A stretch of 63,298 bases of DNA, counting the filler, from Neolecta irregularis DAH-3 (taxonomy: Eukaryota): NCBI GenBank assembly GCA_001929475.1. It is 5 parts of 5 records of this genome, joined end to end, with 100 filler letters (N's around TTAATTAATTAA, not from the genome) between each part and the next. Parts side by side here need not be neighbours in the genome. Positions count along the whole stretch, not along the records: positions 39,689 to 61,952 come from LXFE01000511.1; 4 more parts are not named here. The stretch is one strand, 5' to 3'. The notes under the pieces are model-generated. The model saw only the letters and a program-made list of their open reading frames with translations. It searched no databases and was not told where the DNA came from. Made by a program: the position numbers and the translations under genes. The first letter of the stretch is position 1. Every line of letters starts with the position of its first letter. Positions 39,689 through 61,952 of the stretch are shown in pieces.

Positions 39689-40714
39689 TCCGATCTAGGG
39701 GGCGGGAGGGCGGCAGGGGGGGCCGCACCTATGAGGCGGCGGATGCCGGGGGAGTAGGCGGGCAGGGCGGGGAAGGCGTAGGCGGCGTTGAGGACGGCGA
39801 GGGGGCCGTGGGCCTCGAAGGGGGTTGTGTAGTAGCACAGCTTGTAGAGCAGGACGCCGAGGGCCCAGATGTCTTTGGGGGGTCAGCGGGGGCCGCGGGC
39901 GGGGAGGGCGGCGGCACCGGACTTTTCGCCGATGGGCAGGCGGCGGTAGACGTCTGTCATTTCGGGGGAGCGGTACTGCAGCGTGGTGTGCTGCTGGATG
40001 TCGCGCTCGAGGGCGGCGCAGGCGGCGCGCGAGGCGGGCGCGGGCGTGGGCGGCGCGCAGGAGCCAAAGTCGCACAGCTTGTAGCAGGCGGGCGGCTGGA
40101 GCAGCACGTTCTCGATCTGCGGCGGGTGAGCGCGCGCGGCAGATCGGAGGCGCAACCTTGAGATCGCGGTGCACGAGCGGCGGCGCCAGGTAGTGCATGC
40201 AGGCGACGGCGCGCACGACGTCGCTGAAGATGGCGAGGATCTCGCGCTCCGAGAGCCGCGCGTGCAGGCGCGCGTTCATCAGGTCGATCAGCGCGCCGCC
40301 GACGCAGTGCTCCATCAGCACAAACACCTCGTAGCCGCCGCCCCGGAGGTGCGCCGCGTGCGAGTCGATGTACGCGACGACGTGGCGGTGGCCGCGCAGC
40401 AGTTTCCGCGCCCGTCAGCACCCGCCGCCCAGCCCCGGGTCAGGTACCATGGTCTGCACCTCGGTGCGCACCGTCGCCAGCGCCTGCTTGTCCGGCGCCG
40501 CGACCCGCTTCAGCACCGCCGCCCCGCCGCCGCCGTCCAGCGACACGAGGTAGACGTGCGACGACCCGCCTGCCCGTCAGCCGCCGCCGCCCGGCCAGCA
40601 CTCACCCTCAGACAGGAACTGGTCGATGCACACGCGGTGCGAGCCGACCGTGATCAGCGTGCCTGGCGGGAACGTGCCCGGCGGAGCAGGCGGGCGGGCG
40701 GCAGCGACATCCAT
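39689..40714 (-). CDS. Ark1/Prk1 (NAK) family Ser/Thr kinase (3' truncated)
   Basis: [75 protein letters not shown]. Confidence 0.93.
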
Positions 40715-40728
40715 GGAGGTTGCTGGTG

Positions 40729-40808
40729 TAGACTCAGACTCAGACCAGACTCAGACCAGACTCAGACCAGACTCAGACCAGACTCCACACCAGACTCCAC
40801 ACCAGACG
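40729..40808. repeat. (CCAGACTCAGA)n short tandem repeat
   Basis: Directly visible between the kinase start and the LMBR1-like stop. Confidence 0.9.
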
Positions 40809-40825
40809 ACTATTAATAATAATCT

Positions 40826-42791
40826 CTATGCCCCTGTTGCCCACCCTGCGTCGTCGCTCGCTGTCCGCCGCCGCACCCGGAAAAACTCCAGCCCGCTCTC
40901 CACAGAATTCCAGAGCCGCTCCGCAGACTCAGACAGCCGCTGGCCCACAGTCGCGTCCCCCGCCCCCGCGCTGCTCTCCTCCACTTCTTCCCGCGCCAAA
41001 CACCGCCCTGCGAGCATCCCGCTCTCGTCCCACCCCCCTGTCAGTGCTGCCGCGTTACTCATCGTCGCCCAGCCACATACCGCGCTCTATCAACGCCCTC
41101 CCCTCAAAAGCCCCCTCCGCCGCATCCTCCTCGTCAACCCACTGGCTCAACCCAAACATCGTTTTCGCTCGGTCATAAAGATTCAACAACGTCGCTAGCA
41201 CGGGAACCAATATCGCAAGCGGGAACCAGCTATTCAACCCAGCCCCCAGAGCCGTCAGGTTGACGCTAGATCCAAAAAACTTCTCAAACACACTGCTAGA
41301 CCCCGGCGCAAGAAGCGTGTTGTAATTATAGCTTAGAGGGAACCTGCCCCATCAGCCCCATCCACAAACAAGTCTTCACGTCAACCGGCACAGGTACGAT
41401 GCAAAGAAAATCAGTGATGGGGGGTCCGTGTGGTGATTCGGAACTAGTGCAAACAGGTTGAACACTTGCAGCCTGAGCAGTGTCGTATAAGTGCACACGG
41501 CCATATACGTCAGGATTGCAACCGAGATCAGCTATTTTGTTCAGCAGAGGATCTCGACAAAAGTACCTCCACAAGCGCCCATTTTGGGCCCGCCCCACGA
41601 ACAACGATCCCCACAATGCTGATCAAAGGGTGCTTGGCATTGATAAAGATTTCAGAAAAGACAATAATGGCAGATAACATCCCTAGAAGCACTGCGGTGA
41701 CGCGTTTGGCTAAAGGAACCACATTAACGTAAAAGTGATATGCAGCACGAGGCGAAAATAGCCCACTTCTCGCAGTGTTAAATCGTATCACCAATTCGCC
41801 CTTGGATGATGTTCCCGCGTCCATCACATCCTGAATAAATGTAGCTACACGGATCAACGACCCCCATTCACTGCCCGTCAAATTCATTTCCATATAAAAT
41901 ACATACCTAGTGTACCGTTCCTTCTTCCGAGCAGCAGACCTGACCCTCCTTGTTAAACTCGCAAGATATTCATCATCCACTCGGTCGAGCGGTATCGGGC
42001 TTCGATTGGACCCCCGATGCTCTTGTGCCGATGGACACATTGCAATCAATTCCTTCACCCAGGCTTTGTGTTCACCAAACACTTTATGTTCCAAAGCAGA
42101 AACCTCTGCCCCGACTTCAGCTAGTGTCTCTGAGGCTTCTTCCTTGGCATCCCAGACTATAACAGCACGACGTTCTAGGTCCCGTAACTGATACTGCCGC
42201 GAAGCGGAATACCACAGCCTTCGTGGGATATTGACGAGACCGTGGCCCATCAGCATGATTACAATGACCAGACCCCATGAATTGGCTAGTGCAATGATCG
42301 TTGATTTGATTGCAGCTCTACCACTTTAAAATAGATCGAGCAACAGCATACGCCGATGAAACCTTGGTAGATGCCAGTATGTAGACAAGAACCGAACTCG
42401 AAATCACAAGGCCAATGATCTGGTTACGAAGATTGGTGAGGAGCGCGCTCTTGAGACGTTTCCAGGGAGCCCGATGACCACTGTCGACATAATTCTGCAT
42501 GTTTGGAAACACAAACCAAGTGAAAACAGCACAAGTCCACCAGGTCGTTCGCCAAACGACGACAAGCACATTCTCGGGAATGAAAAAAAGGGGCCGTTGG
42601 TTCTTGGTGCTAGAAGTTGATGCGAGATCGAATGGAAAAAGTAACACCACGGAGAACGGAATAAACCATCCTATAAACACAGCTGCAGGGACATACGCCG
42701 GTAAACTGCGCGGCCGAGAGTAGAATGAAAGCAGACCTGCCACAAGACAGCCCACCAATGCAAAGGCAAATACAGTCGGCAGCCAGACCAT
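40826..42791 (-). CDS. LMBR1-like multi-pass membrane protein (LMBRD2-like)
   Basis: VFIGWFIPFSVVLLFPFDLAS, TWFVFP.MQNYVDSG, ALANSWGL..MLMGHGLVNIPRRLW, FNSWFP-like C-terminal motif and TLLNLYDR. Confidence 0.88.
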
Positions 42792-43008
42792 CGAGTTGCG
42801 GGGATCAACTTGCCGGTGTCGTAATCTCCGATAAGCCCCAGAACATGATTCATCATACCATAAAATAATACATAGAATGTGACTACTTTGATAGTATAAA
42901 AGCTTTCAAGCACTTGTGCTTCATAAAAATGTGACGGTGGATGTGGGATTGGTCTCACTTGTTCTCGGATTGACATCAAACTCTTTCATAAACATCAAAT
43001 ATACACTT

Positions 43009-43456
43009 ATGGGCGGTGCCGAAGTACCTTCATGGAGTATGTTCTTCTCTCTTGCACAAGTCATCTAACCAACAGTGGTCTTGTAATCTTCCTTGTCTGT
43101 TCTAATTCGTCCAGGGCTGGTGGGGCAGTTTTAAAGGCCGTAAACAGAGTTTGTACTAGTTTCACTGCCCTCACTGACTGCTTCAGGGGGAATTACTACC
43201 TACACTTTGTCTCCCTTTGCTGCTCGTCCGTTTGCAGGAGCTCTTCACGCCGCCATTTTCAATACCGCCCGGCGAACCAGAGGACAGCTCTTCTACGTTG
43301 CACCGCCATTTATCGCAGGCTATTTTGTCTGGGACTGGGCCAAGAAAAGGTTGAATTTAATTAATCCCTCGGATTCTCATCTTTAGAAATGCGTACTTGA
43401 ATTCCAAAGCTGGACATCAAGAGGCACAAGCACAAGAAGAAGCTTTACGAGGTTAG
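43009..43456 (+). CDS. QCR8: Cytochrome bc1 complex subunit 8
   Basis: Spliced product MGG...MGWWGSFKGRKQRGITTYTLSPFAARPFAGALHAAIFNTARRTRGQLFYVAPPF...NAYLNSKAG. Not in the ORF track. Confidence 0.9.
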
Positions 43457-43657
43457 AATATATGCACATCTTCTTTTTGCCTGTGCGTCTTGCAATGCGA
43501 GCCCGAGTCGAGTATCTATGCTATTCTATACCTAAAAGTAGGCACAATTGTATCTAGTAAGCTTTTAACGCATCCATATGCTCTTTCATGTATCCCACTT
43601 TGTTTTCGTCCATGGCTTATATCGGCGTGACCAATCTCCGCCGTAGCAAGGTTATCA

Positions 43658-45644
43658 ATGAACATCGACATTCGAGCAGCCCAAGCGGATGTCCTTCCAA
43701 ACCCTACTCGTTTACCAAGAGTAGATATGAAATCTGATCCTTTGTCAGAGCGCAGCTGTGACTATGTTTCTGCGAAACCATTAAAGGTAAAATTACTGAT
43801 TCGCGGATTAACAACTCCGAGATCCAGCCTGTGCAGATACATACACATGGCCAATCATTTTTGGGAAGTCTGAAAATGACTCCAAATCATCTCATATTTC
43901 AATCGACTGCACGCGATCTGTGGTATCCATATCCGATCGTGAATACTGTGGAAAGGCGGATACCGTCGGCAGATGGCTCTCAGAGTGCTCTCAGATTTCG
44001 GAATAGAGATTTTAGCTCTATAACGCTTTTCTTTTCGTCAAGGTCCGATTGTGATTATGTATTTGAGCATATCATGGGTCACACTTGTATCAGTATGTTC
44101 CTGAAGATTATAGGTTAATATCAAGCATCCGTTCTCTGTTTATATGCATTTTCTTACAAGCCTGGCCTCTTGGAGTCCTCGCTTAATTCGTGGTCCCTGT
44201 ATGACCCTCGGAAAGAGTTTATACGTCTCGGTGTGAATACGAGAACAAAAGAATGGAGATTTACAAATGTGAATATGAATTTCGAGGTATCCCCAGATCA
44301 TATCAACGGCCTCACGCCTAGAGATGCCCAACCTATCCAGAGCTACTTGTTGTTCCTTCCAAGATCAGTGACAATACTCTGAATTATGGTTACAAATATC
44401 GATCAAAGGGTCGAATTCCTGCACTGACATATATACACACATTGAACAATGTATCAAATCTTCTAGTCGTCAGATTACTGAATCACAGTGTACAATAACT
44501 CGATCGTCTCAACCCTTGGTGGGGATAAAGCAGAACAGATCAATTCAAGACGAGAAGCTGCTGGAAGCTATCTTTGCTACAACACATCCAGATGGCGTAT
44601 ATGGTTCGCAAGCTAACAACCTCATTATCGATGCTAGGCCAACCAAGAATGCCTTCGCCAATGTAGCTATCGGAGCCGGCACAGAGGATATGAATAATTA
44701 CAAGAACGCACATAAAGCATACCTTGGCATTGACAATATTCATGTTATGAGAGATTCACTCGCAAAAGTTGTCGAAGGTTCAACCAATATCTTGTCATAT
44801 ATGCTAATTTAATAGCCATCAAGGATTCTGATCTCGTTCCCCTCCCTCCAAACCGTGAATTGCTAGCCAAATCTGGTTGGTTGAAGCATATTTCAGCAAT
44901 CATTGATGGCTCTCTTCTTATCACCAGGACGATTCACATCCAACATTCTTCAGTCCTAGTACATTGTTCTGATGGTTGGTCCGTCTTCTGTACCGATGAT
45001 ATGCAAGCTGACATGCTAGGGATCGTACTAGTCAGTTATCGGCTATTTCACAACTATGTCTCGATCCGTATTATCGGACCGTGGAAGGATTTATGATCCT
45101 CGTGGAAAAGGATTGGATGTCTTTTGGTCATCGATTTGCAGATAGATGTGATCATCTTACATCAGAAAAGGCCTTCTACACTACCGATGGTGGAAATTCA
45201 ACTCTTGCCTCGATGATAATCAAACCGTTTTTTGGGACCAAAGAAAGCTCACCCGTGTTTCACCAATTCCTAGATTGTACCGAGCAAATTCGCCAACAGT
45301 TTCCAAATCGATTCGAATTCAATGGGCGGTTTCTGAAGCGTATTTTATATCACTTGTATTCTTGCCAATACGGCAATTTTATATCAAACAGCGAGAAACA
45401 GCGATGCGAACATCGCGTTAGAGAAAACACAAGGTCTTTGTGGGATTATTTCCTGACTAGAAGATCTGATTTTGTTAACGAGTGTTATAATCCTGCTTTA
45501 GATCTTCCCGGGGATACAGTTCTTTTGCCTGACCCAAAACATGTGCAGTGGTGGTCAGATGTATTCGGAAGAACAGACGAAGAAATGAATTCTGGCCTTT
45601 CAAAAGGTGAAATCCTAGGGGTCGGTGTTGACTTTATTAAATAG
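43658..45644 (+). CDS. Myotubularin phosphoinositide 3-phosphatase (Ymr1-like)
   Basis: CPTYP, RSKGRIPAL, RSSQP.VG, IIDARP, GIDNIHVMRDSL, catalytic VHCSDGW|DRT, EKDW.SFGHRF, SPVFHQFLDC. Confidence 0.93.
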
Positions 45645-46291
45645 CAATTATGAAAACCGGTATATCTACTGATTGGTGCGTTCTCCTAGAATCCTTTAAA
45701 ACTCCTTCATAATTAACCAAAACATATTTATGATCGGATATTCTATATGAAATTGTCAAAGGGCCCTGGCGGCTCATCCGAGTTGCCGTGATTCACGATT
45801 TTGATGGATACTGGGATAGGGATGAAAACAAGCCACATTATCTGTAAGATATATCATCAAATATGGTGTAAGGTTTGATTCGTATCAATCTACAAGGTTT
45901 TGGGTACCGAGGATATTGACCTGAACCGCATCTATCCCATTTGTACCAGGTCCTCATCACACATATTATATATCTGACTCGTGGGGCAGCTCAGTCGTTG
46001 ACTAGAACGAAGAGGGCATGGTAGAGCCATACTTGTTGTTCGTTAGACCATGGGTTCTAATGTTATCAAATATTTTCTCGGTTTCGACGGGAAATTTCCA
46101 AAGTCTCGGGACAAGCTTCTGCCAGAGTAAATGTGGTTAATAATTATGCAACCTATGAAAATGTCTTGCGACGAGAGTATGCTACATCATGTATGGCATA
46201 CCCTATGAAACCTTCTTGAACCTTCAAGAAACCAAAAGAATAAACTTCACACCTGACTGCCTTGAAGAAGAACGAATGTTCATCTCCACAG

Positions 46292-47044
46292 TTAAAAACA
46301 TACACACGTTCTGTTTCGCTTTCCAACAGGATCCACATAGCCCTCTCCAATCAAAACCCAAAGCCCAAGAATGAGAACGGTACGGACAAATTTTGTCTTT
46401 GTGATTTCTGCATCCTGTGAAGAAATACTTGCTAGGACATCTTGAAAGTCGGAGGAAAAGATAATAGCATTCTTTGTAATGCGAGCAAGGGGTTTGGCCT
46501 CAAGACTGAACGGTACCGGGGTTGAGAGCATGACAAATCTCCATTCAAAGCTCCCAGCTTCATCTGAAGATTTTCTGCGCTTGTATCTGGTCCAGCGACA
46601 AATGAACTGGAAATGATTTCGTACGGATGTGAATTCATAGTTCTTCCTGTTCTTGTCGCTGAGATTCGAGATAACAGAGAACATCATATCTTCTACCGAA
46701 ATATGCTCCTTTCCATTCTTCACTCTGAACGCTGCGAGCTTCTGCTCACTGTTCGAATCTACAACCAAGGCGATAGTTTTCCGATGACGACATGCAAAGT
46801 GACTAGGTAGTTCTAGGTTTAATGCAGGGGATGCGTGGTTCGGTGTTGGTGAACTGAGGAGTTGGAGTTGCAATAGCAATAAGGGTGACTTTCCGTAGAA
46901 CAAAAACGTTCGAGTAGGAGGATAAGCGATAAGATACGTCATTCGCTTCCGCGAAATCGACGTTGAGCCCACCAACGGAGAGGGAGATATCGAGTTACGA
47001 TCAGGAGAAGCCGATGACTCTGGATTTGAACCACCCTCAGACAT
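46292..47044 (-). CDS. Hypothetical protein
   Basis: 250-aa ORF with natural composition; family not recognised; the 3' end may splice further. Confidence 0.55.
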   Translation of the reverse strand: MSEGGSNPESSASPDRNSISPSPLVGSTSISRKRMTYLIAYPPTRTFLFYGKSPLLLLQLQLLSSPTPNHASPALNLELPSHFACRHRKTIALVVDSNSEQKLAAFRVKNGKEHISVEDMMFSVISNLSDKNRKNYEFTSVRNHFQFICRWTRYKRRKSSDEAGSFEWRFVMLSTPVPFSLEAKPLARITKNAIIFSSDFQDVLASISSQDAEITKTKFVRTVLILGLWVLIGEGYVDPVGKRNRTCVCF

Positions 47045-47420
47045 TTTGACCAGGGAGACGCTGTGAGATGTGTCTTAGCTGATGATGACGATTGCGTGTG
47101 AAAACCAGTCCAAGGCTATGGCACAGCAGAATTGTATTTTTAGTAGGGCAGGGGGATGGAGGCCAATGATATATGCGCGACAGACGGTTGACCGGAACAA
47201 GGTCCGGTTGTGATTGGCTAGTGGTGTGGGGAAGGTAGCGGCTATACCTAATCACCGAGTTATCTCCACGGTGCCGGGTAAATACTTTGCGCGACGCAAG
47301 GTGTTGTCGGACGATACGGAATTAAAAACCAGAGATTCCACCCCTTCAGCGGCATATGGAAAACGTCATATGAAGGTAGGTTTTCGAGTCGATGTCGATA
47401 CTATCTAGATCGGCGATAGC

Positions 47421-47753
47421 TGTGGGCACACACCGTTACCCCACCATCGCAACTCCCACCAGCTTGCCACCGCCACCGCCTAATCATCGGACGGAGCAGA
47501 GAGCAGCAAGGGCCGCAGCTCATCCCAGTCGGGCCAGTCACAAGCATCGCCACCCAGCAAAGCAGTAGAAAAGGCCGGCAGGCAGATGACGGCAGCAGCC
47601 CGTGTGGCGAATCTGTATATAAGTAGCTCCTAGCCGGACTAGCTGGTCGCTAGGCTTTCATCTGATATTCAATTTACTCTTACTCATAGTATCTACGTCG
47701 GCATATCCAATCCAAGTCCACATCGGCACCCAACCCCAGGTCGTGTGCTGACA
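47421..47753 (+). mobile_element. Solo LTR, family B
   Basis: TGTGGGCACA...GTGCTGACA; flanks ATAGC/ATTGC form a 5-bp duplication with one mismatch; internal TATATAA. Confidence 0.88.
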
Positions 47754-47943
47754 ATTGCTCGTTTCTTCGGTGATTAGACCGTCATGTAGAAGAAGCTATC
47801 CATCTTCCTATTGTCAAATAAACCACTATACAAGAGCTTTAATACTTTCAAGTATGTTTTCATGAGTCGATGAGAAAGGGTGATGTTTGGGGTGTCGGTT
47901 CGTACGCCGCCGAGCTTAATCCTGCTTTACTCCTGATCTCACC

Positions 47944-48517
47944 ATGTCCGACGGTAGCTTCCGTAAAATTGATATTGATGCTTTTGGTGACGACCATGTA
48001 ACCGAGGAAGAATTATATCCGCCAGATCTACCCTCATCAGATGATGTTTACGCGGATGTACAAGGCAGGACCGAACAGGTTCGAAGCCTATTGAGAAGGT
48101 CTGCACTCGCAATCTCTCATGGCTAACTCAAAGGGGCGATGTTCATTCTGCTCTCCCTTTGGTTCTCGCAAACCCTCCTTATGGTGTTAGAAATGAGAGC
48201 GCCAAGGTCTTTTAAGTGACTTCTTCTTTTGCTGATGTCAGTAGGAGATTCATTCCCATACGGTTATGGAGGTTCTAAGTTCAATCAAAGCATCAGAGAT
48301 CACTATCTTGCTGAAACAACTTTCACCAGATGACAATGACGTTCTTATGAAGTATTTATACAAGGGGATGGCCAGTCCGGAGACATACAACATGGCTGTT
48401 TTGTTGAATTGGCATGAAAAGGTACAATTTACTCTTAGCATGCATAACTAATGAAAGCTCGTTGAAGTAGCAGGTAATGGTGCAATTGTCCGCGCGATTA
48501 GTGGATATACAGTTTAA
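47944..48517 (+). CDS. ARC15: Arp2/3 complex subunit ARPC5/Arc15
   Basis: FRKIDIDAF, PPYG, VMEVLSSIKASEI, DVLMKYLYKGM, AVLLNWHEK|LVEVAG.GAIVRA. Confidence 0.92.
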
Positions 48518-48543
48518 CTCGTGCTATGCATGAATGACATATT

Positions 48544-49227
48544 TTATTCCTCGGCGCTGCATGTCGTCCTGAACTGTTCATCTACTTTATCTAAAAGACT
48601 TTGCGTCCACTTGACTGCATTTCTCCGCTTCTGACGTGCTTCGGATGCATCCTCCAGGTCCTGCGGTATATCTATAGCATCTAGGTCGAGCAGTCTTTGT
48701 AAGAGTAACTCTCCTAGACGGGCATGAATTTCCTTGTTCTTAACGGGATCTCTTGTTCAACACCAAGAAAAAGAAACTAGAGGTACCGGTAGGGGTGGAT
48801 TTAAGGTAGCCGTCAACTTGCGGGCATAGTTCAATATTTGTGCGATCTATTGATGCTTGGATGATATCAAGGAATGACTTTTTCAAGTACTGAGGAGGCT
48901 GAGCCTGGTATTATCAGCTATGAATGTCTGGGGGTGTGTCCTTGCATTATCTCGAAAGTCCTCCATAACTAGAACTTGAGCCCCGCTTCTGATGCCATAC
49001 TCTGCAAGGGGTTTGTCGTCGTTTGCTAATTCGACACCGGCAAAGTAGTACCGCAGTTTCGGTGTTCCTATGCGACGAGAACAGTGCGACTTGAGTTCCT
49101 CCAAAGTCGCGCGTTTGGCTGAGATGGCATTTTTTTCAAAGGTTACAGGGAACTTTTCCGTTCCGTACCAGATAGTCAAGGAGTCGGTCGACGTCTTGGA
49201 CGACACGACAGAGCGAAACCAGTCCAT
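48544..49227 (-). CDS. BAG-family co-chaperone (ubiquitin-like plus BAG domain)
   Basis: UBL region (FAGVELANDDKPLAEYGIRSGAQVLVM), then BAG helix LGELLLQRLLDLDAID...ARQKRRNAVKWTQSLLDKVD. Confidence 0.8.
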
Positions 49228-49431
49228 TGCTGGCTGACACGAGCGTGTAGGGAGAGGTTCGACTATGAATAGACTGCGGGTTGAGCGCTCTGGGGATAAA
49301 TACATGGTTTAGTGCGCGCGTATCCTGTATGCATTATGTATGCGTTGTATATGCGTTTTGCAGTTGCTCGCACCGGCCGGTCTGCATTCAGGCTGGGCCT
49401 ATGCGACTCGCCTCGTCCAGCAGCCGCAGTC

Positions 49432-50831
49432 ATGGCCACCGCGTCTCGCCGATTACACCACGCTGACTCGGCCCTCTTCCGCCAATTCCCAGACGGCTTC
49501 GAAATCATACTGGGCCGCAATGTATGTCTGCCTCTAGCTCCTGCCCATTGATTTACCCAGGGCCACGATGCTGTCTACGGCCTTACTCCCGGAATTCCTC
49601 CCGCCTTCCGCAAACGCGATCTCATCCCCCAAACCCCTGCCAAAGCCGCATTTCCCAACAACATCAACAGCAGCAGCAGCAACATTGATATCAAAAATAG
49701 CAACATCGACATCATCAGCAACAACAGCAACATTGATAGTGATATAAACGGTATCCAGGTCCCCGACTATCCTCTTGCAACTCCTTCCATCATCCTTCCA
49801 CAGATAGCGGGCTTCTCACCCAGCCTAGTCTATGGACACTCCCCTTCTCCAGCTGGCACTGGTCTCGACTCCGCAATTGACAGTCCCAACTCTTCACTTC
49901 CTGAGCAATCCTATTCTTATACGTCAATTGCCTCCAACTACAGCCTCCAGGCTGCTTCCAATGGCTCACCCCAAAAAATCCGAAGTGTATCCTCCAGCTC
50001 TCGCATACCTGTCTCTCGAGCATCCCCCATTCCCATTCCCGTAAAAATGCTGAACCGAACAATACCCTTGCATTTGACAGAGAAAGATAGCGTTGTCAAT
50101 GACATGCAACCGACCACAAGTCATGACAGACAATCGTCTACTAGCAGGCGACGGTCAGAGCCCGATCTGCATGTACAAGAGACCATTCCGATGATGAGAA
50201 CAGTTGTCAGTCAAAGTCAGACCCGAGGTCGCCCGCGGCCACCGTCACCATCCACAGCCTGTAAGCTATCTCGTCGCATATCAAAGTCTATACCTTCGTT
50301 TTCACCTCGCAGGCCAAAAACTCCCACCGGCCCTCCACCTTGGCTTATTCCACAGCACTCACCACAATCACACCTCCCTCCCAACCAGCAGATTGTACCT
50401 ACCGTTGCCCGCAGGCTCGAGGCGACGCGGATTGCTCAAATGTCGGAGGATGATCCAACCTTGGTACGGATCTGGGATCGATGCATGAATCCTATGGTTG
50501 TGCAGCACTGTATTCCTCAACCGCAGTCAAAGCCTTCCACTCGGCCTCTGTCGAAAGAGACACAAAATCAAATCCTCGAAAAGCTGGTCTCTAGAGAACA
50601 AGTCTCTGCAACATCTATTGCTGTGCATATTCTCTAATCCCTACAGTGCTGATGTTACAGAATGAATTTCTTCCAACCTTTTCTGGATCAGCGTCTGCGA
50701 TGCCACCACAAAACACCATTGATGAAACAGGAACAGTCATGTTGAATCATAAGAGAAAGACGTTTATCAGTCCCACAGATGATATGGGAGTCAGAGGAAC
50801 GCCGAGCCCTTGCTGTTGTGTGATCTCATAG
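49432..50831 (+). CDS. Hypothetical low-complexity protein ending in a CaaX-like motif
   Basis: Chain of Pro/Ser-rich ORFs linked by short introns; the last exon ends PCCCVIS-stop. Confidence 0.5.
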
Positions 50832-51002
50832 GTCAATGGAAGGTGTTTCTCACAAAATATAACGCGGGGGCGACGCTGGACATATGGTTTGCACCGAACT
50901 GCATTCATACATGTGCTGTAGGACTATCTTGATTTGTTCACATGGAATATCTACATTTGCTTCATTGACTTTCTTCAAGGCGTTGAGGGCACTGGTTTTA
51001 TG

Positions 51003-51952
51003 TTAGGCATGTTGGTTTTCGTCTAATTCTTCTACCTTTCGTTTGCTAGTATACTGTAAGGAAGGTTTTTCTAGCATACTTACCTTTGGTTTTTAATCAA
51101 TCCACGGATAGTGAGATCATATACTACTAGAGCTTCTCAGGGCGATAGCTCTAGGGCACATACCTTCTTCAACCTTCTTTACATCATATTTAATTGAATC
51201 AAACCGCCGACGAAGCGAATCATTCTTCAAGTTGAGTAAGGAGAACGCAGAATGCAGTTCTTTTACAAAGGTACTGATTTTGAGGGGCTTTTTGAAATCT
51301 TGCATGGTCACCGAGTTAACTGCGAGGCGGGACTGACTGTCAGCAGTGGACGAGACGAGGCGATGCCAATTCGTTGATCAGTGAAATGATAGCGTGAAGA
51401 TAATCCTCGACGCTTAAATGAAATTTGTCATCCTCGACGACGTCTGAAGGGACTAACTTGGAAAGGATCAAGGGATAGACATGGAGCGGCATACCTCCGA
51501 GTTCGCGACTCACTTGGTCCAAAGTTGCCAGTGCTTCATTCTCAAGATAAAACATCAGGATGACTGCGAAGGAAGCCTGTTGAATAGCGCGATTCCATGT
51601 GTCATAGTATCGATAATAAGGATAGCTTGCGGCAATATTTTCAAGTTCTTTAATCCTAGATTTCTGCTCGCAGAAAAGAGGATGGCTAAGGACACTCAAT
51701 TCGGGAACTGAGATCAGCGGCTTCATTTATAATTTCGTGCAGTTAGGTGTGGAGTGAGCCTGTGCCAGAACTGAAAGGATAGAACGAGTGTCGCGATCCA
51801 GAGCCGTAACAGCCTTACGAAGATCCTAATAAAAGTGAGCTGCTTAACCCCTATAGGCTTACCTCACGGGCTTGCAAATCCAAGTCGATATCCTGCTGGA
51901 CCTTTTGAAAGATCTGGGGGTCGATGATAGGAGCAGAAGATATACTGGTCAT
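51003..51952 (-). CDS. TSN: Translin
   Basis: YYRYYDTW, FHLSVEDYL.AIISLINEL|SRLAVNSVT..D, LNLKNDSLRRRFDSIKYDVKKVEE..YDLTIRGL. The exact 3' end is uncertain. Confidence 0.92.
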
Positions 51953-52545
51953 GTCTGTAAAAGAAAATGGTAACGGGACTAGCACAAACCATCAAATTCA
52001 CCCTCCCAAGCTAGAAAAATACACCCAGAAATACCCGCCTAGCTTTAATTCTAATGCACAATGATACCTCCAACAAGAAGGCAGTTTCAACCCTCATGTA
52101 AAATATCTATCATGATGAATGTATTTGCCGAGATTTTTGTCCATTGCATCGATCCCCTCTTTCCACAACCTCAAGGGCCAGGCTTAACTCACACTTGAAT
52201 GGAAGAACAAAGGAATTGCGTGCACCGGGCTGTCAACGTTCCGATAATAATAAAGGAAAAAAATTCATTTCATAATTCTAAAATCGACTTGTTGACAGCC
52301 GATTTCCCAAGAATTTTGGGATCTTTCAATTCTCCTCAAAGTACAATATCGAAAGAGGTATATGTCACAATCGCAGTCGTTTGCTTGAGAGGAATTGCCC
52401 ATAAGGACATGGTTATCGCAATGTAAATATCATTCAACTAGTATGTACCTTGCACAGGAGATGTCACCAAAGAGTACGATCGTTCGTTTACATGAAAGAG
52501 AAGCTGAACGAACACTGACGAAAATATGTAGACTAAAGAAAAGTG

Positions 52546-54159
52546 TTACTTTTTGCCTGATGCTTTTTGAGCAGATTTGGTAACCTTCCCAGCAACTTTA
52601 TCTGCTTTGACAACCGACTTGACGACACCGACAGCAACAGTCTGTGTGGGTTAACGAGCGGCAAACATGCAAGGATATATACTTGTCTCATATCCCGGAC
52701 AGCAAATCGACCAAGAGGAGGATAGTCCGTGAACGCTTCACAACACATCGGCTTGGAGGGAACAAGCTTGGCAATGCATGCCTCTGTAGTCTTGACAGAC
52801 AGAGGCTTTATTTCGAGTATTTTTCCACTTCGTCGATCGATCTTCTCAATGAGCTCGGCGAATTTGCAAGCAATGTGGCAGGTATGGCAGTCGAGAACTG
52901 GCGCATACCCGACACTAATTTGACCTGGGTGATTGAGAATAATGACTTGGGCATTGAAAGATTCAACTGACTTGGGTGGATCGATCTTGGCCTCTCCGCA
53001 AACATATCCACGTCGAAGATCCTGTACTGCAACGTTCTTAATGTTAAATCCAACGTTGTCGCCTGGTACGGCTTTAGCAAGTTGCTCATGGTGCATTTCT
53101 ACTGATTTGACTTCAGTGGTGATGCCAGATGGTGCAAAAGTGACAATCATACCGGCGCTGATACAACCACTTAAAAAATCAATCAAGTCTGACAGAGAAA
53201 AGTTACGATTCGACTCTGCCGACGGGAACAGTTCCAATACCACCAATCTTGTACACGTCTTGAAGAGGCAATCGAAGAGGTTTTTCGACAGCTCGAATGG
53301 GTACTTCAAAAGCATCGATGGCATCGATAAGAGTCATGCCGGTGATTGTATTACCACTCGAGGTTTCCTTTTTCCAGCCAGTGTACCAAGGCATGTTTTT
53401 TGAAGGCTGTACCATGTTGTCACCCTGCCATCCCGAAATAGGGACAAAACAGACTTTTTTAATTGGATATCCGACTGACTGGATCAGTGACAAGAAAAGA
53501 TAATTGTTGTACCCTTCTTGACGAAGTGGCCGGTTTCTTTCACGATTTCTTCGAAACGAGCTTCAGAATAATTGACACTATCCATCTTGTTGACAGCAAC
53601 AATGAGTTGTTTAACCCCAAGAGTGTAAGCAAGAAGAATATGCTCTTTGGTTTGTCCATTTTCAGCAAGACCGGCTTCGAAGCCGCCAACAGATGCATCA
53701 ACTATGAGGATAGCCGCATCGGCTTGCGATGTTCCTGTGGTATGTCAGACAGAAGGACTTATTTCCTGATACCAGTAATCATGTTCTTGATGAAATCTCG
53801 ATGACCTGGAGCATCGATGACAGTTACAACGCACTTTGGGGTTTCGAATTTCCACAGAGCAATATCGATAGTGATACCACGTTCTCGTTCCGCCTTGAGT
53901 TTGTCAAGAACCCAGGCATACCTGGTTGGTAAGAACACTTGATATAAGGCAAAATATACTTGAAAGAACCCTTTCCAAGATCATTAGCTTCCTTCTCAAA
54001 TTTCTCAATGACTCGCTTGTCGACACCACCACATTGCTGTCTTTTAGAGTACCGAAAACTGTGGGGACACACATAGATTAAATTCCCAGTTGATGTCGAT
54101 TTCCCTGAATCGACATGACCGATTACTACAATGTTGATGTGAATTTTTTCTTTACCCAT
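52546..54159 (-). CDS. Divergent elongation factor 1-alpha paralog (intact)
   Basis: Full spliced ORF with [63 protein letters not shown]; same six coding-intron positions as the 59995 gene. Confidence 0.92.
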
Positions 54160-54397
54160 GGCAGAAAGTCGATATCTAGGACAGTATAAGCAAGAGCGGA
54201 ACGCTATGTTTTGCGGTGTTGCAGACAAGAGAAAAGAATGAGCAGTCACAAGAGGATTTATAGTGCATTGCCATAGCCGGACACGACAAAACAGGGACGT
54301 ACTAGCACTAGACTCAACAGAAACAGGTTCCAGGGTGCTCTGCCCTTTCAAACAGTGCCTATCAACTCCTTGCAGCACCAGAAGCCCATCACATACA

Positions 54398-57278
54398 TCA
54401 ACCCAGTAGAGTCTTTGGAAATCCGGCAAAATCAATCTGTTCACTGACATCACCAATGGCATCTTTAAAGTACGTGATTTTCAGGCGTAACCGTATGTTT
54501 GCCTGCTATATCAGCTAAAAGTCGACAATCGGAATCGGTTACCCCCAGACCAGCCGTAATTCGCATCACTTGATTGGCCTCCTCTCCCCCTTTTAAAGTC
54601 GGAGCTGATATAGGTTGTAATTGAAGTTTTTGAGTTTTCGGAACCGCGGCTTGGAGACTGATCTTATCGATCGACGCAATGGGATCCTCATTCCGAAACC
54701 GAGCAGTGATGTCGACCACTCCGGGTGAATAAGAGTCACCTCGAACCGGTTGCAGGGTAATCTTGAACCCATTCTTGTGATACACAGTAAATTCCTCTAC
54801 CCAATTAAATTCATTCCGAGACTGATATTACGGTAATTTGAACTGGAAGGGATTGCCCGTGATTGATCGGGTGAAAATGAAGCTCTAGGTGATCCATTAC
54901 CATTACCGAAGAGCGCCATGATATCACCACTCTTGCTAGACTTTGAAGCATTATGTTGTCCAGAGTCTCCGAAAATATCGGACAGTAAATCCGCATTCGC
55001 ATGGCTATCGGCCGGTTTCGAATATGTAACATCGTTTATACCCATAAGATCAAGCAAAAGCTATCGAAATTAGACAATCAAGGAGGGGGATGTGCATACA
55101 TCTTGACCGGCATTACTTTTTCTCAATTGTCCTCTAGTTTTCTTCGCCTGTGTACGGATTGCCGGACCAAGGACGCGACTGTCTTCATGGATTTCCGGAG
55201 GAGGCATGCGCTCTAAAACACCGGTCCGTATACTATCGTGATCGAAAAGTTTACCGTATTCGACAGATCTTTGTTGGATTTCTATGTCAATACTGGTAGC
55301 GTAACGAGAAACGATTTCCCTAATTCGATTGATCAAAGACTTAGTGGTTATACGAGCAGTGAATTTCATCAAAGCTGTAATTGCGTACTCCGAAACCGCC
55401 TGCGTTGCATAGTTTCCTGAAAGTATGGTCTCGAGGAGATCCACGACCTCGGATGGCTGCACCTCCGAGTTCAGCCGCAGTAGAAAATGATTAGTTGAAC
55501 ATACTTGATTAGCAGGCTCTCCTTCGTCAAATTGTCCTTCCTGTAACAAGAAATCCCCAAATTCGCCGATGATCCAAGTTGCCGCAAGTGTTAGCCCTTC
55601 CTGAGTAACATCCTCTTTAACAGCAGAGAAAAGCTTGTGAACAGCATAACTTTGGAGTTCTGGAGCAGTTCCAATAAGTCGCAGAAAGCTTGACAAAATC
55701 TGTTCTTTGACATAATTACCGGCCTGGCAGATCAAGTCACTATGAACCTGAGGGGATTACCAATTTGAGAACCCGCAGTACAGTATCCACGTGCCACCGT
55801 TTGTTCGGTGCAAATCGGTCAGCAGCAATGCAAATTTGTGTTGTCATAGTAGGTTTGAACTCATTGTTGGCAACTTCAAGGAAAGCTAGCAACTCTCGTA
55901 TTAAAACCCGAACATTACTCTCGTTGATCAGAGCGAAAGATAAATCCAAAGCCCTTCGACGAATTGAGATATCGGGATCACGTAAACATTCCAAAATTGT
56001 GTTCCGATGACGTTGGACGGCCGTTGGTTCAATTGTTATTACTTTGCTGAGAGTGTTGAGCGCAACATATCTAATGATAAGAGTAAATTTGACAGTTGAG
56101 GATATGCCTAATATTGTTGTCACGATTGGCGAGGAATTTTCCTAGAATATTCACACCAAGAACGCGCAGACCGCTATCTGCTTCAATATCCAGTATTGTT
56201 AAAACAGTCTCATATAGAATAGAATTTCCAACATTTTTAGAAGCGTCAGTATTAGAAGCGACCTGAAGTAAGAGGTCAGTTCGTGAATTGATGCACCTGA
56301 GCCAATATGTCATTCATTTGCTCACTGACATCGGGATCTCCAGCACCCAGTACTCGTAGAAATCCCAAAATTTTCACTTGTAGGAATGGGTCTGAAATGC
56401 CTGTAACATCGTGCTCGGGTGAATAACCAGAGCTCGAGAGCTGCTTTAGCAGTTTGACTAGAGTCATTGTTTGCTACAACATCAGAGAGAAGTATATCAT
56501 CAATGTAAAACACACATCCTTGTACTGATCAATGACTTCAGAGTCGTTCAAACATATGTCAGTCGCTAGTGTGATTCCACAAGCCAAAACCCCATGATCC
56601 CGATCTGATAAGAGCTGCTTCGACTTTACAAGGAAGATGTCTTGCAAATCGGGCACTTTCCGTATGATCCGCATTGCACATAAAGCCGCCTTTACATATC
56701 AATATCCTTAAGCCAGAAGATTCGTTGGCTCTACCTTCCTGCGAATGTACGCGCTTGAGGACAACAGCCGAACTACTTCCTGACATAAATCACGAGCCAT
56801 TTCAGCAGACGAAATATTCGCCAAAGTGCATAATGCCAGTCCTACTACGTACATGTTCGCATGATTGAGATCGCTAGTGGTTGAGCACGATTACGAGAAC
56901 AAAGACCCAGTTACTTCTTTAAAGAATTGGTGACTAGAGTGAGAACTTCCTGGTTTTCATCGAGAAGCAACATAGTTCCGAGATAACCCAATCGTTTATC
57001 CGCGAATCTGGGACTAGCGAGTAGCTTGAGACATTCTATCTGGCCAAAGTGCGTACGCTCTCCTAGGGTAAAGAGATATAATAGTTTGGCGACGTTGTTG
57101 CGACGGTAGCTGGAATCGGACGACTCCTCGCGCAGTGATGCGCGAATTGCAGCAGACTCCTTTTGGACGACAGCACGTTCATCGGCAGCAGTCTACGCCG
57201 CAATCAGCGCTTTTGGTGGGGCAGAAGCAGCACCTTCGCAGCACGGACTTGTTTAATAAAAGCCTTGAGCGAACTCAT
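54398..57278 (-). CDS. APL4: AP-1 adaptor complex gamma subunit
   Basis: [77 protein letters not shown]-terminal ear domain LQAAVPK. Confidence 0.96.
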
Positions 57279-57779
57279 GAGATAGATGCTGTCTCTGGGA
57301 AATTGTGGAGGTTTGGGAAAGTCCCGTGCAAAACCCGGTATCCTGCCATCTCTGCCTCCCGCAGAGCAATTGATTCATCAATTGATCTGTGGATTTCAGT
57401 AGGCAACGGGTTCTCATCCGTTCCATAACCCTCTTCAACGCCTCTCCCTTGATATCATCCTTGTTCATCTTCCTATCGTTCCAATTTGTAAAATTTAACG
57501 TGCCTTTCTATTTATTATTGTTGGTTAAATCTACTTGCAATAAACAAAGTCAATTGAATATCCATATCCAATCTGCGGTTGACAAAGTTATTGAGGTTAC
57601 AAATCGAGTCCCTTGTATGAAACCCTGCGTCACAAGTATATGTTCTCCATACAATTCATTAACTTAATCAAGCCATGATCGCTAATATTTGTTTCATCCA
57701 GATTTCGCGTCATTTCACCATTTAAGGGTTGAGGTTACCCTCTCTGTCAGCTGATAAATCCGAGGTATCGCCGCCCCGC

Positions 57780-59496
57780 ATGGCTACCCAACACAAACCC
57801 AAAGTTCTTGCCAGTACAAGCAGAACGTCTAGCAATGATCGCCTATTCAAGGGCATAGATTTTGAGGCTCGGGACTCGCACTTTGACCGATGGCACAGCT
57901 CTACGAGGAATATACAGACTTACGAGGGGTTTTTTGTGCTGTTCTGGGTCGGTCTGACCATCATGATGTGTGTAACACTCAATGGGTCCCTCCTAATCTA
58001 TCAGAATGACCACCGCAATGCACAACCTCAAAGAAACTGGCAAAATCTTTGGCGGATCCCTTTTCAGTCTCCTCTCGGATAAGCTTCTCGAGCTCGCGGT
58101 AGGCGACGGCATCATGGTCATCAGCGCTGGTTTCGTTGTTCTGGTGCAAAACATTGTCCAGAAGGGTTACATCTCATGGGACAAAACGGGTTACATACTA
58201 CAACACTTTCTCCAACTTGTTTGGTTAGGGTGGTGGCTGTCATGGATATTCATGCACTCATGGGGGTGGACTCACAATGTAACATTCGTGCTTCATACGA
58301 TTGTTCTTCTCATGAAGCTTCATTCCTACTCTTTGTATTTTCTTCAACTTTTGCAGAGCTAATAATTTAGCTACAATGGCCACTTATCGGCCGCAGAGTC
58401 GAGACTGAGGATGCTGTATGCGAAAGTCTCTGATGCCAAGGATGCTTCTAAGGAGGACCTTGAAGAAATTGAGATTTTGGATAGAGAGTTATCGTCACCG
58501 ATTGGTGAACTCAGATATCCTGAAAATTTATCGATTGCTCGCTGGATAGATTATCTCATAGTGCCTTCCCTCGTTTATGCTCTCGATTGGCCTCGCACGG
58601 AACGGATACGTTGGTTCTATGTACTCGAAAAATCACTTGCAACGCTGGGCAGCATCTTTCTATTGTATATCGTTGCCGAACACTATATGGTCCCTGTAAT
58701 GCACACCGCCGCTCAAAGTCTCGTCCGTCAGGAGAACATTAGTGGCATCCTGATGACTGTTGCCGAAGGTATCACCTGGTTATTGTTTCCGTTTACTCTA
58801 GCAATATTATTGGTAAGTCTCGGTATTTCTAGTTTTTGGGCTAACATTGCAGGTCTTTTATATAGTATTCGAGGTGATGATTATATCACGCGTATGCTTA
58901 TCCTATAGTCAATATTGAACGTCTTTGCTGAAATCTCGAGGTTTGCTGATCGCCGTTTTTATGATGGTTCGCGTATTTTTAGTCTATCTTGCTAATTTGT
59001 AGATTGGTGGAATTCCCACACATGTAGTGCTTTCCTAGAATAGGAAACCTGACCAAATAGGGGCTGCTTTTGCTGTCAAGTGGAATAGGCCAGTACATTC
59101 GTTCTTACGGGTTCATGTGTACAATGCCTGTCAGCCGAAATTTTCACAATCGACAGCGACCTTTCTGACCTTTCTCATATCGTCAATTTTTCACGAGCTT
59201 GTACTGGGTAGTTGTTCCCCTGAATATTTCTAAGACATAGTTGTTATTTTCAGGAAGCTGAGATTTTACGGTTTCATCGCCCAGATGTTTCAGATACCAT
59301 TAATACAGTTACAGCGCATCAAGTTGCTGCGTGATCATAAAGTATCCATCCCAGCTTTAGTATGTTCTAACTCTGAGACTACCGGGAATGCAGTCTTCTG
59401 GATCGGTCTGATACTTGGATTGTCATCGGTATGACAGATATGCATTTATTCTCCAGCTAACAGTTTGAGATTTGTTCATTATATGTGCTTTTCTGA
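57780..59496 (+). CDS. Sterol O-acyltransferase (MBOAT, ARE family), paralog 2
   Basis: YEGFFVLFW, LLMKLHSY, YPENLS, FADRRFYD|DWWN, WNRPVH.FL..HVY, FHEL, GNAVFW. Confidence 0.92.
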
Positions 59497-59985
59497 CGGT
59501 GAAATAAAACATGAATGAACCATCTCGGTTTTTTTGGTTAGATTATAGTGGATACAGTTCTTTCTCGTGATAGGTCCTCCCTTTAGTTTCTGGGTGTTGA
59601 GGCAAATATGGCTAGTATATCATTTGGCGTTTGCCCTAACAACGGGACTAGCTATGCTAGTCGCGATCCGCGTGATCTCCGCGGGAACGGACTACGGCGT
59701 TTGCAATCATTTGCCTCGTCAAAGACTCTTTGGCACGCGTGGCAAAGGCAAGAAGCGATTTGTTGTTACTCATAGATGTGGTGGCTTGGTGAGATAATTA
59801 ATAATATAGGAGATTTACGGCATTTGAAAAGGAGTCACGTATAAAAGGGTGTCTTAGCAGCCTCATTTTCTGCCTTGTCTTGCAACACCGTGAAACGAAA
59901 GCTTTCCATTCTTGCACTAAACATACTACATCCATAAAGTAAGTTTCCTTTCCATTTATATGTGCTTATGTTTCTCAGCTCTTAA

Positions 59986-61604
<1,619 letters not shown>

Positions 61605-61694
61605 AGAATTTTGTGTATTGACCTGTCTATTGATCGATCTCTTGTTGTGAGTAGAGTGCGAACGTAGGATACCGACGTAGGAGACCGACACACT

Positions 61695-61952
61695 CTACAG
61701 AATCCAGCTGGTGCCGCCCTGCATCTCGCGCTCCTCGCGCTCCCACTGCTCAGCCCGGATCAGCTGGGCCGCCGTGGCCCGGTCGTGTTGTTCGTCGTCC
61801 TCCGGCGCGGTGTCGTGGCCGATCTCGGCTGCGAGACTGGACCGGCGCCGGTGCCGCGCGCTCTTCGTGTCCCGCGTCGCCCACGCGTCGCCGCCTGCAA
61901 ATATCGCCTCGACGACCTCGGCGGGCTCGAGCTCGCCGGCGGGCAGGTCCGA
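61695..61952 (-). CDS. C-terminal fragment of a GC-rich unknown gene
   Basis: Open frame from the contig edge to TAG (...RHRRRSSLAAE...EREEREMQGGTSWIL) with strong GC3 bias. Confidence 0.6.
   Translation of the reverse strand, partial: SDLPAGELEPAEVVEAIFAGGDAWATRDTKSARHRRRSSLAAEIGHDTAPEDDEQHDRATAAQLIRAEQWEREEREMQGGTSWIL

Follow-up and report, generated by a model that had tools for sequence, protein, structure and literature searches.

A strongly divergent, lineage-specific second eEF1A isoform in Neolecta irregularis

In this work we describe a new, lineage-specific and divergent isoform of the elongation factor eEF1A in Neolecta irregularis, encoded 5.8 kb from the canonical gene of the same genome. 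eEF1A ranks among the most conserved proteins of eukaryotes, and in fungi its copies are normally almost identical; divergent paralogs are known in other eukaryotes. Because the second Neolecta gene is intact, transcribed and spliced, has a conserved counterpart in a second taxon and evolves under purifying selection, the evidence supports a strongly diverged working copy rather than an incipient pseudogene, and we regard it as highly probable that the gene is functional and maintained by selection.

Gene structure, locus and transcription

The window, i.e. the whole stretch of 63,298 nucleotides that was analysed, consists of several contigs joined by N-linkers, and both eEF1A genes lie on a single piece of it, in divergent orientation and with two other genes between them (Table 1). 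The database entries of the two proteins give a contig of the same length as this piece, 22,264 bp. An earlier note on this DNA had described an intact paralog on the opposite strand of the same contig, about 6 kb from the canonical gene and sharing its six intron positions, and the gene models bear out each of these points. Translation of the hand model gives a frame with zero internal stops and zero frameshifts that begins with MGKEK, as in the canonical copy, and carries no N-terminal extension. Exon lengths of 87, 77, 149, 222, 268, 487 and 96 nt in the paralog match those of 87, 77, 149, 222, 265, 487 and 93 nt in the canonical gene, and the six intron positions are therefore identical; the sole differences in length are one extra paralog codon in each of exons 5 and 7. 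The introns measure 36, 38, 38, 38, 37 and 41 nt in the paralog, all GT..AG with 12/12 splice dinucleotides intact, and 36, 39, 37, 43, 37 and 38 nt in the canonical gene.

Table 1. Coordinates of the two eEF1A genes and associated features, counted along the window
Feature	Position	Strand	Remarks
Contig carrying both eEF1A genes	39689..61952		22,264 bp
Divergent eEF1A paralog gene	52546..54159	-	7 exons; 461 codons and a stop; model built by hand, checked on its translation
Paralog exons	54159-54073, 54036-53960, 53921-53773, 53734-53513, 53474-53207, 53169-52683, 52641-52546	-	
Paralog 5' leader	54160..54240	-	resembles leader read through in the P0026 record
Paralog exon 4	53513..53734	-	densest paralog-specific block, yeast positions 116-137; E122G, D130N, R134K and A137I among the changes
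Paralog exon 6, domains II-III	52683..53169	-	K316Q, N322Y, A364C and remodelled strand K390L-F391S-S394T-G395T-D396E
Tract of raised nucleotide identity between copies	53765..54033	-	60-nt windows 83-93%; other coding windows 0.48-0.88, mostly 0.6-0.8
Canonical eEF1A gene	59995..61604	+	459 codons plus stop; translation identical to P0029
Canonical exons	59995-60081, 60118-60194, 60234-60382, 60420-60641, 60685-60949, 60987-61473, 61512-61604	+	

The paralog is represented in the database by protein P0023 (473 aa), which equals our model plus 12 residues encoded by intron 1; the public model misreads this in-frame, stop-free 36-nt intron as coding. Deliberate retention of intron 1 was considered and dropped, because chance alone would leave a frame of 12 codons free of stops in about half of cases (our own arithmetic) and because P0026, an environmental relative of the paralog, has the exon 1-2 junction in spliced form. 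The frame upstream of the paralog ATG agrees with the first 26 residues of P0026 at 14/22 aligned codon positions (our own count). Domain matches precomputed on P0023 (PF00009, PF03144, PF03143 and PF22594) place a GTP_EFTU G domain and domains II and III in the protein, and the paralog matches the yeast eEF1A chains 5o8w_A and 1f60_A over their full length (E about 3e-229). From these features the paralog can be assigned to the eEF1A family, and its place in the tree (see below) and the lack of an N-terminal extension set it within eEF1A as opposed to Hbs1, eRF3, Ski7 or EFL.

The open frames scanned on the 22-kb contig gave, by Pfam, kinase, LMBR1, myotubularin, ubiquitin-like, translin and adaptin domains, and the one scanned frame on the neighbouring piece of the window gave Tra1. 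The end of the 22-kb contig is unusually GC-rich. An assembly artefact, a contaminant or a divergent allele of the canonical gene might be suspected from this oddity of composition and from the joined make-up of the window; however, the two genes occupy one contig with other genes between them and run in divergent orientation, their intron positions coincide, phylogeny places the paralog with Neolecta, and the independent Logan contigs obtained for run X1 extend over the locus without a differing letter, leaving the likelihood of such an artefact negligible.

The paralog is spliced and transcribed, and the earlier note's proviso that a lack of expression would count against it does not apply. 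Contigs of run X2, labelled 'DNA?', are spliced, and the run is therefore cDNA in effect. One of them (record 6, 699 nt) aligns exactly to paralog exon 6 and extends beyond the aligned segment by 87 and 125 letters on its two sides. In the canonical gene, introns 3-6 are missing from a cDNA contig at the modelled borders. Among the 15 of 28 splice joints listed for X2, none belongs to the paralog. Word depth in these contigs is 34.1 for the paralog vs 1041.3 for the canonical gene, depth in contigs being a poor measure of level, and the evidence for expression is that the paralog is present in a single cDNA-like data set, which belongs to the study that produced the genome.

Divergence, selection and ancestry

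The two Neolecta proteins are 78.2% identical. Compared with 28 other fungal eEF1As, the canonical copy shows 85-89% identity, the paralog 74-76.5%. Pairwise dN between the copies is 0.146 and dS 0.93-0.98, giving a dN/dS of about 0.15, far from the value near 1 that the earlier note had associated with an incipient pseudogene. Using six outgroup cDNAs, dN since the duplication was estimated at 0.113-0.119 on the paralog branch vs 0.023-0.030 on the canonical branch, so that the paralog protein has changed 4-5 times faster. With half of the pairwise dS assigned to it (our own arithmetic), the paralog branch has a mean dN/dS of roughly 0.2-0.3, well above that of the canonical branch. The paralog has a slightly weaker codon bias than the canonical gene (ENC 47.7 vs 43.9).

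Divergence is uneven along the genes. A homogenised-looking tract of about 270 nt takes in intron 2, where 32 positions match between introns of 38 and 39 nt, and dS between the copies is 0.48 in codons 30-105 vs 1.12 in codons 106-459. Outside the tract dS is about 1.1 and dN about 0.17. The tract is possibly an old patch of gene conversion.

The environmental sequence P0026 is 89.4% identical to the paralog and has 57 derived states in common with it; 20 of the shared replacements affect columns that do not vary among 30 canonical eEF1As of fungi. In a tree of 32 eEF1A rows, which excludes Hbs1, eRF3 and EFL, the paralog and P0026 form a clade with support of 100/100 on a long stem (0.5-0.69), and within fungal eEF1A this pair groups with the two canonical rows of Neolecta type (support 96/89). 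Tip lengths are 0.11 and 0.085 for the paralogs vs 0.025 and 0.057 for the canonical rows. The changes that separate the two paralogs from each other avoid invariant columns: 9/49 lie in columns invariant across 28 other fungi, where 31.7 would be expected (P = 4e-11). These results support a burst of change at positions that are normally invariant, followed by purifying selection on the paralog.

Further members of the clade were sought in two protein searches. A full-length search of 5.8 billion protein clusters placed P0023 and P0026 alone in the clade among the 120 matches listed of 8000 scored, and a fragment search with residues 133-216 scored 390 candidates, the best at 71%, and yielded no further clade member. 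In the search for DNA encoding the P0026 ortholog, a back-translated 14-residue paralog motif gave 0 matches in metagenome_contigs. Among 80 loci kept from 588 relatives in a search with P0026 none was of the paralog type, the best reaching 78% identity; by tblastn against these 80 loci P0026 reached at most 78% and P0032, taken by assumption to come from the same organism, at most 88%.

These results bear on whether the paralog is a relaxed duplicate heading for loss. Its raised rate of protein change, its weaker codon bias and the finding of two clade members among the matches listed are what such a duplicate might display. This reading is nevertheless contradicted by the intact frame and splice sites, by transcription and splicing, by the pairwise dN/dS, by an ortholog that keeps the 57 derived states, and by later changes that avoid invariant columns; furthermore, 0/20,000 neutral simulations at equal divergence remained stop-free. 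We consider incipient loss very improbable. The duplication of the canonical gene most likely took place in the Neolecta lineage and preceded the divergence of N. irregularis and the taxon represented by P0026. The new copy then fixed about 57 replacements, among them the 20 at positions invariant in the 30 canonical sequences, and subsequently settled under purifying selection.

Residues kept and replaced, and their possible functional implications

Residues are numbered here as in yeast eEF1A, by alignment to chains 5o8w_A and 1f60_A. As the earlier note had stated, the GTPase motifs are retained: G1 (14-22), switch I (67-74), G3 (91-98, including H95) and G4 (153-156) are canonical in both the window copy and P0026, and G5 reads SGW in the former and SGF in the latter. 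Both also keep the predicted tRNA-contact residues K62, R69, K100, N101, E291, R320, H347, K406 and R425 and the actin residues N305, F308, N309 and S405, the two lists being taken from PMC4482628. The same source gives K30, K79, K316 and K390 as the methylated lysines of yeast eEF1A. In place of K30, K316 and K390 the paralog and P0026 alike have Q, Q and L, so that the reported loss of three methyl-lysine sites holds in the alignment to the yeast chains. With invariant columns changed and one of the four methyl-lysines left (K79), the paralog departs from a canonical housekeeping orthologue.

All substitutions quoted in the earlier note are present, i.e. GHLIYK to GNLIYQ, PKFVKSGDA to PLSVKTTEA, the block at 116-137, a changed SVKEIRRGN and a string that now reads HTCHI. 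Two of the highlighted changes proved less special than they had appeared, since among 121 other full-length eEF1A-type sequences Q30 occurs in 12/121 and N130 in 7/121. Others are without parallel in this set: H26, E122, I127, R134, N182 and K390 are unchanged wherever present, with E122, I127 and R134 invariant in 120/120, 121/121 and 121/121 sequences having a residue there. At further sites known from yeast suppressors, E40, T142, N153, D156, E286, E291 and E295 are unchanged in the paralog and position 317 is D, a common variant. An AlphaFold2 model of the paralog, built from a 30-row alignment, has a mean pLDDT of 52.4 and a pTM of 0.43 and is too poor for mapping these sites.

Given that G1-G4, His95, switch I/II, the nine predicted tRNA-contact residues and the four actin residues are unchanged, an elongation role is the function most likely kept, and on balance we favour the interpretation that the paralog would still be an elongation factor. 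On this interpretation it would bind GTP and aminoacyl-tRNA and act on the ribosome as a minor isoform, and the changed sites may alter its regulation or decoding kinetics without abolishing function. The 20 replacements at invariant sites include E122, where E122K is pathogenic in human EEF1A2, and loss of normal elongation activity is therefore possible.

Such a loss is assumed by the alternative that the paralog is a subfunctionalised moonlighting copy, which would take no part in bulk elongation and be kept for tasks such as actin bundling or the handling of tRNA or protein. The retained actin residues, the changes at canonical-invariant sites, the missing methylation sites and a cDNA contig word depth below that of the canonical gene (a weak measure) are consistent with this alternative, as is the like pattern described by Kamikawa et al. 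(2013; PMC3699394), in which the main factor is abundant and is accompanied by a divergent copy. However, all GTPase motifs and the listed predicted tRNA contacts could be dispensed with by a copy that no longer serves translation, and their retention in both orthologs counts against it, as does the avoidance, in changes after the split of the two, of columns invariant in canonical eEF1A. We therefore treat moonlighting as a credible but unlikely alternative to a retained elongation role. [quoted passage not shown]

The earlier note had proposed a neofunctionalised factor, stage-specific, moonlighting or toxin-resistant. That the paralog is functional and diverged agrees with our results, and it is the toxin-resistant option that fares poorly. 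As a reserve factor insensitive to inhibitors of the didemnin, ternatin or nannocystin type, the paralog would provide self-protection or defence against competitors. The remodelling of the strand before the conserved alanine lends this some appeal, in that 5/7 residues there differ from the canonical sequence (K390L, F391S, S394T/N, G395T and D396E), and 120-121 of the 121 other sequences have the canonical residue at K390, G395 and D396. The alanine itself, equivalent to human A399, is unchanged, however, so that the known resistance position is not altered. Pfam scans covered 20 open frames, of which the 22-kb contig contributed 19, and showed no NRPS, PKS or other biosynthetic domain, and among the matches listed from the literature on self-resistance paralogs in biosynthetic clusters none mentions eEF1A. 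In addition, Carelli et al. (2015; PMC4786417) report that sensitive cells made to express resistant eEF1A did not become resistant, ternatin sensitivity being dominant; no protection would therefore be expected from a resistant copy that is minor while the sensitive one is abundant. The dominance of sensitivity and the lack of biosynthetic genes among the open frames scanned on the 22-kb contig together disfavour toxin resistance, which we judge to be improbable.

Significance and comparison with known systems

By itself the finding opens no long-standing question. Because 20 invariant residues were changed in a copy that was then conserved, the paralog amounts to a natural experiment on positions that are otherwise fixed, including three methyl-lysines, the human disease and yeast fidelity site E122, and the strand of the didemnin/ternatin/nannocystin pocket. 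It also calls for caution in tef1 phylogenetics and barcoding in the Neolecta lineage, and the public protein P0023 carries a retained intron. The literature found to name Neolecta together with elongation factor 1-alpha is taxonomic by title; the main text of the Neolecta genome paper (PMC5309816) mentions neither elongation factor, paralog nor transcriptome, and its supplements may list the two genes. The sole mention of duplication in that paper concerns transcription factors.

Compared with canonical fungal eEF1A (yeast TEF1/TEF2; PDB 1f60, 5o8w), the paralog has the same three-domain architecture and length and is identical at G1-G4, His95 and the predicted tRNA-contact and actin-contact residues; it differs in its reduced overall identity, in its invariant-site replacements and in lacking K30, K316 and K390. 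Animals also have tissue- or stage-specific isoforms, such as eEF1A2 and the Xenopus oocyte protein 42Sp50, which come from a second eEF1A gene and differ in expression pattern and properties. Animal eEF1A1 and eEF1A2 are >90% identical, whereas the Neolecta pair stands at 78% and differs at sites fixed across fungi. Near-identical pairs kept alike by gene conversion offer a further comparison, the Neolecta copies being likewise linked and having one homogenised-looking tract; outside that tract, however, they have diverged, the opposite of concerted evolution. The three fission-yeast eEF1A copies, an example of near-identical genes, have branch lengths of 0.006 or less in the 32-row tree.

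A likeness is also found in species that possess both EF-1alpha and EFL, where a strongly diverged eEF1A likewise occurs beside a dominant factor. Kamikawa et al. (2013) describe a divergent, weakly transcribed EF-1alpha beside EFL and propose that it is kept for part of its original functions (PMC3699394). The Neolecta system differs in that the partner is an ordinary eEF1A rather than EFL and in that the divergence stems from a recent lineage-specific duplication. At the level of single residues, the paralog is changed at E122 and D130, sites of yeast TEF2 suppressors and, in the case of E122, of a human disease allele. In yeast, E122K and E122Q double near-cognate misreading and D130N (TEF2-13) was obtained as a suppressor of a +1 insertion, according to PMC1885216; human EEF1A2 E122K is pathogenic, with protein synthesis down and tRNA binding up (PMC10515156). 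The yeast and human E122 mutants carry K or Q, whereas the paralog carries G, and its N130 is a natural variant in other eEF1A-type sequences.

Gene models and transcripts of the eEF1A locus

Gene models bear out the earlier note's description of two eEF1A genes on the same contig, on opposite strands about 6 kb apart, with six shared intron positions and a stop-free frame in the diverged copy. Both lie within a single 22,264-bp piece (39689-61952), divergently oriented with start codons 5.8 kb apart, and are separated by an adaptin gene and another spliced gene. Exons 5 and 7 each differ in length by a single codon and the other exons not at all, so all six intron positions coincide between the copies. 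Introns of the two intervening genes are tiny throughout (34-45 nt in cDNA contigs); one of them, at 56070-56108, reads CT..GC on the plus strand, being a GC..AG intron in the adaptin gene of the minus strand.

Genes at the eEF1A locus
Feature	Position	Strand	Structure or basis
Divergent eEF1A paralog	52546-54159	-	7 exons, 461 codons + stop, six introns of 36-41 nt, all GT..AG
Adaptin gene	54263-57234	-	cDNA contigs
Spliced gene between eEF1A copies	57500-59862	+	cDNA contigs
Canonical eEF1A	59995-61604	+	459 codons, introns 36-43 nt

The window consists of separate contigs rather than one chromosome stretch, joined by linkers (21505-21604, 34369-34468, 39589-39688 and 61953-62052) in which 44 N stand on each side of a 12-letter spacer with stops in all frames; genes flanking a linker are therefore not neighbours, as with the Tra1 fragment (62465-62914) that follows canonical eEF1A past a linker. 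Runs of 10 N stand at 12581, 21315, 34181, 35832 and 38101. Directly past the canonical 3' end, the final ~260 bases of the 22-kb contig (61690-61952) reach 73.5% G+C, versus 44.6% window-wide, which suggests either a chimeric end of the contig or foreign DNA.

Searching with exon 6 brought up P0023 ('Elongation factor 1-alpha [Neolecta irregularis DAH-3]') as a 100% match, along with the canonical protein P0029 from the same contig; the length on record for the contig of the two proteins equals that of the 22,264-bp piece. The canonical gene model equals P0029 exactly, and P0023 (473 aa) is 12 residues longer than the paralog model but otherwise equal to it, the 36-nt intron 1 (54037-54072), in frame and stop-free, having been left in as coding. 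The public paralog protein model probably carries these 12 spurious residues, the spliced form being that of an environmental ortholog, P0026.

One of two sequencing runs holding the locus, X2, is recorded as 'DNA?', yet its contigs are spliced; it shares a study with the probable source run. Joints with GT..AG or CT..AC ends comprise 15 listed and 13 further unlisted ones, the former including canonical introns 3-6 exactly at the modelled borders. Positions 88-574 of X2 record 6 (699 nt) align to 52683-53169, precisely paralog exon 6, and the leftover 87 and 125 letters must consequently belong to adjoining exons. This record has a word depth of 34.1 and the canonical contig one of 1041.3, values that are no measure of expression. 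That the paralog is an artefact has a negligible probability.

P0026 (487 residues, encoded by a 1709-nt environmental contig) shares 89.4% identity with the paralog and 78.7-78.9% with the canonical proteins. It is continuous over all six intron positions, with a spliced exon 1-2 junction, the simplest reading being that its source is a transcript. A read-through leader makes up the first 26 residues of P0026 and is similar to the window frame upstream of the paralog ATG; read in the CDS frame, the paralog 5' leader (54160-54240) agrees with it at 14 of 22 positions by manual count. Judged against the 5-10% protein divergence of the eEF1A genes, this match would exceed free-drift expectation, and the leader appears conserved. 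The canonical-type environmental partner, P0032, matches P0029 at 94.6% identity, and no further paralog-type sequence was found among the full-length proteins, short fragments or metagenome DNA searched.

Divergence, selection and origin of the paralog

The two Neolecta proteins are 78.2% identical; compared with 28 other fungal eEF1As, the canonical copy shows 84.7-89.3% identity and the paralog 73.9-76.5%. Coding sequences share 77.3% of nucleotides (58.6% at third positions), and homology stops at the CDS borders, beyond which identity falls to 0.28-0.45. From the end of exon 2 through intron 2 to exon 3 (53765-54033), nucleotide identity rises to 83-93% and dS is 0.48, versus 1.12 elsewhere; in intron 2 (38 and 39 nt long) 32 positions match, versus 20-26 in other introns. 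Gene conversion long ago between the inverted copies, some 6 kb from each other, probably left this patch.

Between the copies, dN of 0.146 and dS of 0.93-0.98 give a pairwise dN/dS of 0.15-0.16 by four methods. Nonsynonymous change since duplication was estimated against six outgroups, all environmental fungal cDNAs, to which synonymous distances are saturated and unusable; the paralog branch shows 0.113-0.119 and the canonical branch 0.023-0.030. When the canonical CDS was randomly substituted to the same divergence, none of 20,000 simulated sequences stayed stop-free. With an open frame, a spliced transcript contig and this dN/dS, the paralog is intact and no incipient pseudogene, as the earlier note had held, and decay is highly improbable.

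In a maximum-likelihood tree of 32 rows, all kept (4 Neolecta-type, 23 named fungi, 5 environmental), the paralog and P0026 group together at 100/100, with a stem of 0.5-0.69 changes per site, and their clade joins the two canonical rows of Neolecta type at 96/89. A phylogeny was among the checks proposed by the earlier note; this one, of eEF1A rows, identifies a lineage-specific duplicate: the duplication is Neolecta-specific and predates the split of the two taxa. The shared intron positions agree with this placement, long-branch attraction being possible in principle.

The bulk of paralog change sits on the stem; the paralog tips measure 0.11 and 0.085, the canonical ones 0.025 and 0.057. 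Both paralogs share 57 states unlike both canonical Neolecta-type rows, 20 of them in columns invariant across all 30 canonical rows (yeast numbering): H26N, I34V, I116V, G119S, E122G, I127L, S128A, R134K, A137I, N182P, L227I, P239A, K271S, S314A, K316Q, N322Y, K390L, G395T, D396E and I436V. Among 121 other full-length sequences, H26, E122, I127, R134, N182 and K390 show no variation where the residue is present, and K316, G395 and D396 one variant each. Q30 and N130, two of the substitutions stressed earlier, are less unusual, occurring in 12 and 7 of the 121. Since the taxa split, the paralog pair has accumulated 49 differences and the canonical pair 25; only 9 of the 49 fall in invariant columns (297 of 459, across 28 other fungi), versus 31.7 expected (P = 4e-11). 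On the stem 20 of 56 changes do so (stem versus tips, Fisher P = 0.053). The picture from these alignments is of a burst of change at normally fixed sites, after which constraint resumed.

Retained and lost residues and their functional implications

Alignment to yeast numbering confirmed the loss of three of the four methyl-lysines described by Jakobsson et al. (PMC4482628), K30, K316 and K390, with K79 kept, alongside retained GTPase motifs: G1, switch I, G3 with His95 and G4 match the canonical copy in both paralogs. Nine predicted tRNA-contact residues and four actin residues named in the same source are also unchanged in both. An AlphaFold2 model was poor (pLDDT 52.4).

The paralog also carries E122G and D130N. 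E122 lies near the nucleotide pocket (PMC1885216, PMC10515156). In yeast, near-cognate misreading rises 2.2-fold with E122K and 2.05-fold with E122Q (PMC1885216), and in human EEF1A2, E122K reduces protein synthesis and raises tRNA binding with the same intrinsic GTPase activity (PMC10515156); unlike these K or Q mutants, the paralog has G. D130N is the TEF2-13 allele, a +1 insertion suppressor that lacks a clear missense effect (PMC1885216).

The paralog is very probably a lineage-specific eEF1A isoform that is functional and under selection. Since both orthologs keep the complete catalytic and tRNA-binding apparatus, we lean towards a minor elongation factor that may have altered regulation or decoding properties; retention solely for non-translational roles is rather unlikely.

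The earlier proposal of a neofunctionalised eEF1A stands as regards a functional, selected and strongly diverged gene, but its toxin-resistant option is disfavoured. Five of seven positions are replaced in the domain III strand preceding the alanine equivalent to human A399, the didemnin/ternatin site, which borders the cleft where ternatin-4 sits according to Juette et al. (PMC9584604). The alanine itself, however, is kept, and ternatin sensitivity is dominant, resistant eEF1A giving sensitive cells no protection (Carelli et al., PMC4786417), which argues against the usefulness of a minor resistant copy. Nor was there any sign of a biosynthetic cluster among 20 domain-scanned open frames (19 on the 22-kb contig, one on the next joined piece), which held kinase, LMBR1-like, myotubularin, ubiquitin-like, translin, adaptin or Tra1 domains, or none. 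A toxin-insensitive reserve is thus improbable.

Comparison with known second eEF1A genes

No prior description of the Neolecta paralog was found in the literature searched, which included the genome paper's main text. Second, divergent eEF1A genes are already known in other organisms, Xenopus 42Sp50 being one example. Animal eEF1A2 is a further second eEF1A gene (PMC10515156), and EFL-bearing species possess a divergent, weakly transcribed EF-1alpha, as reported by Kamikawa et al. (PMC3699394); like the latter, the Neolecta paralog is a divergent eEF1A.
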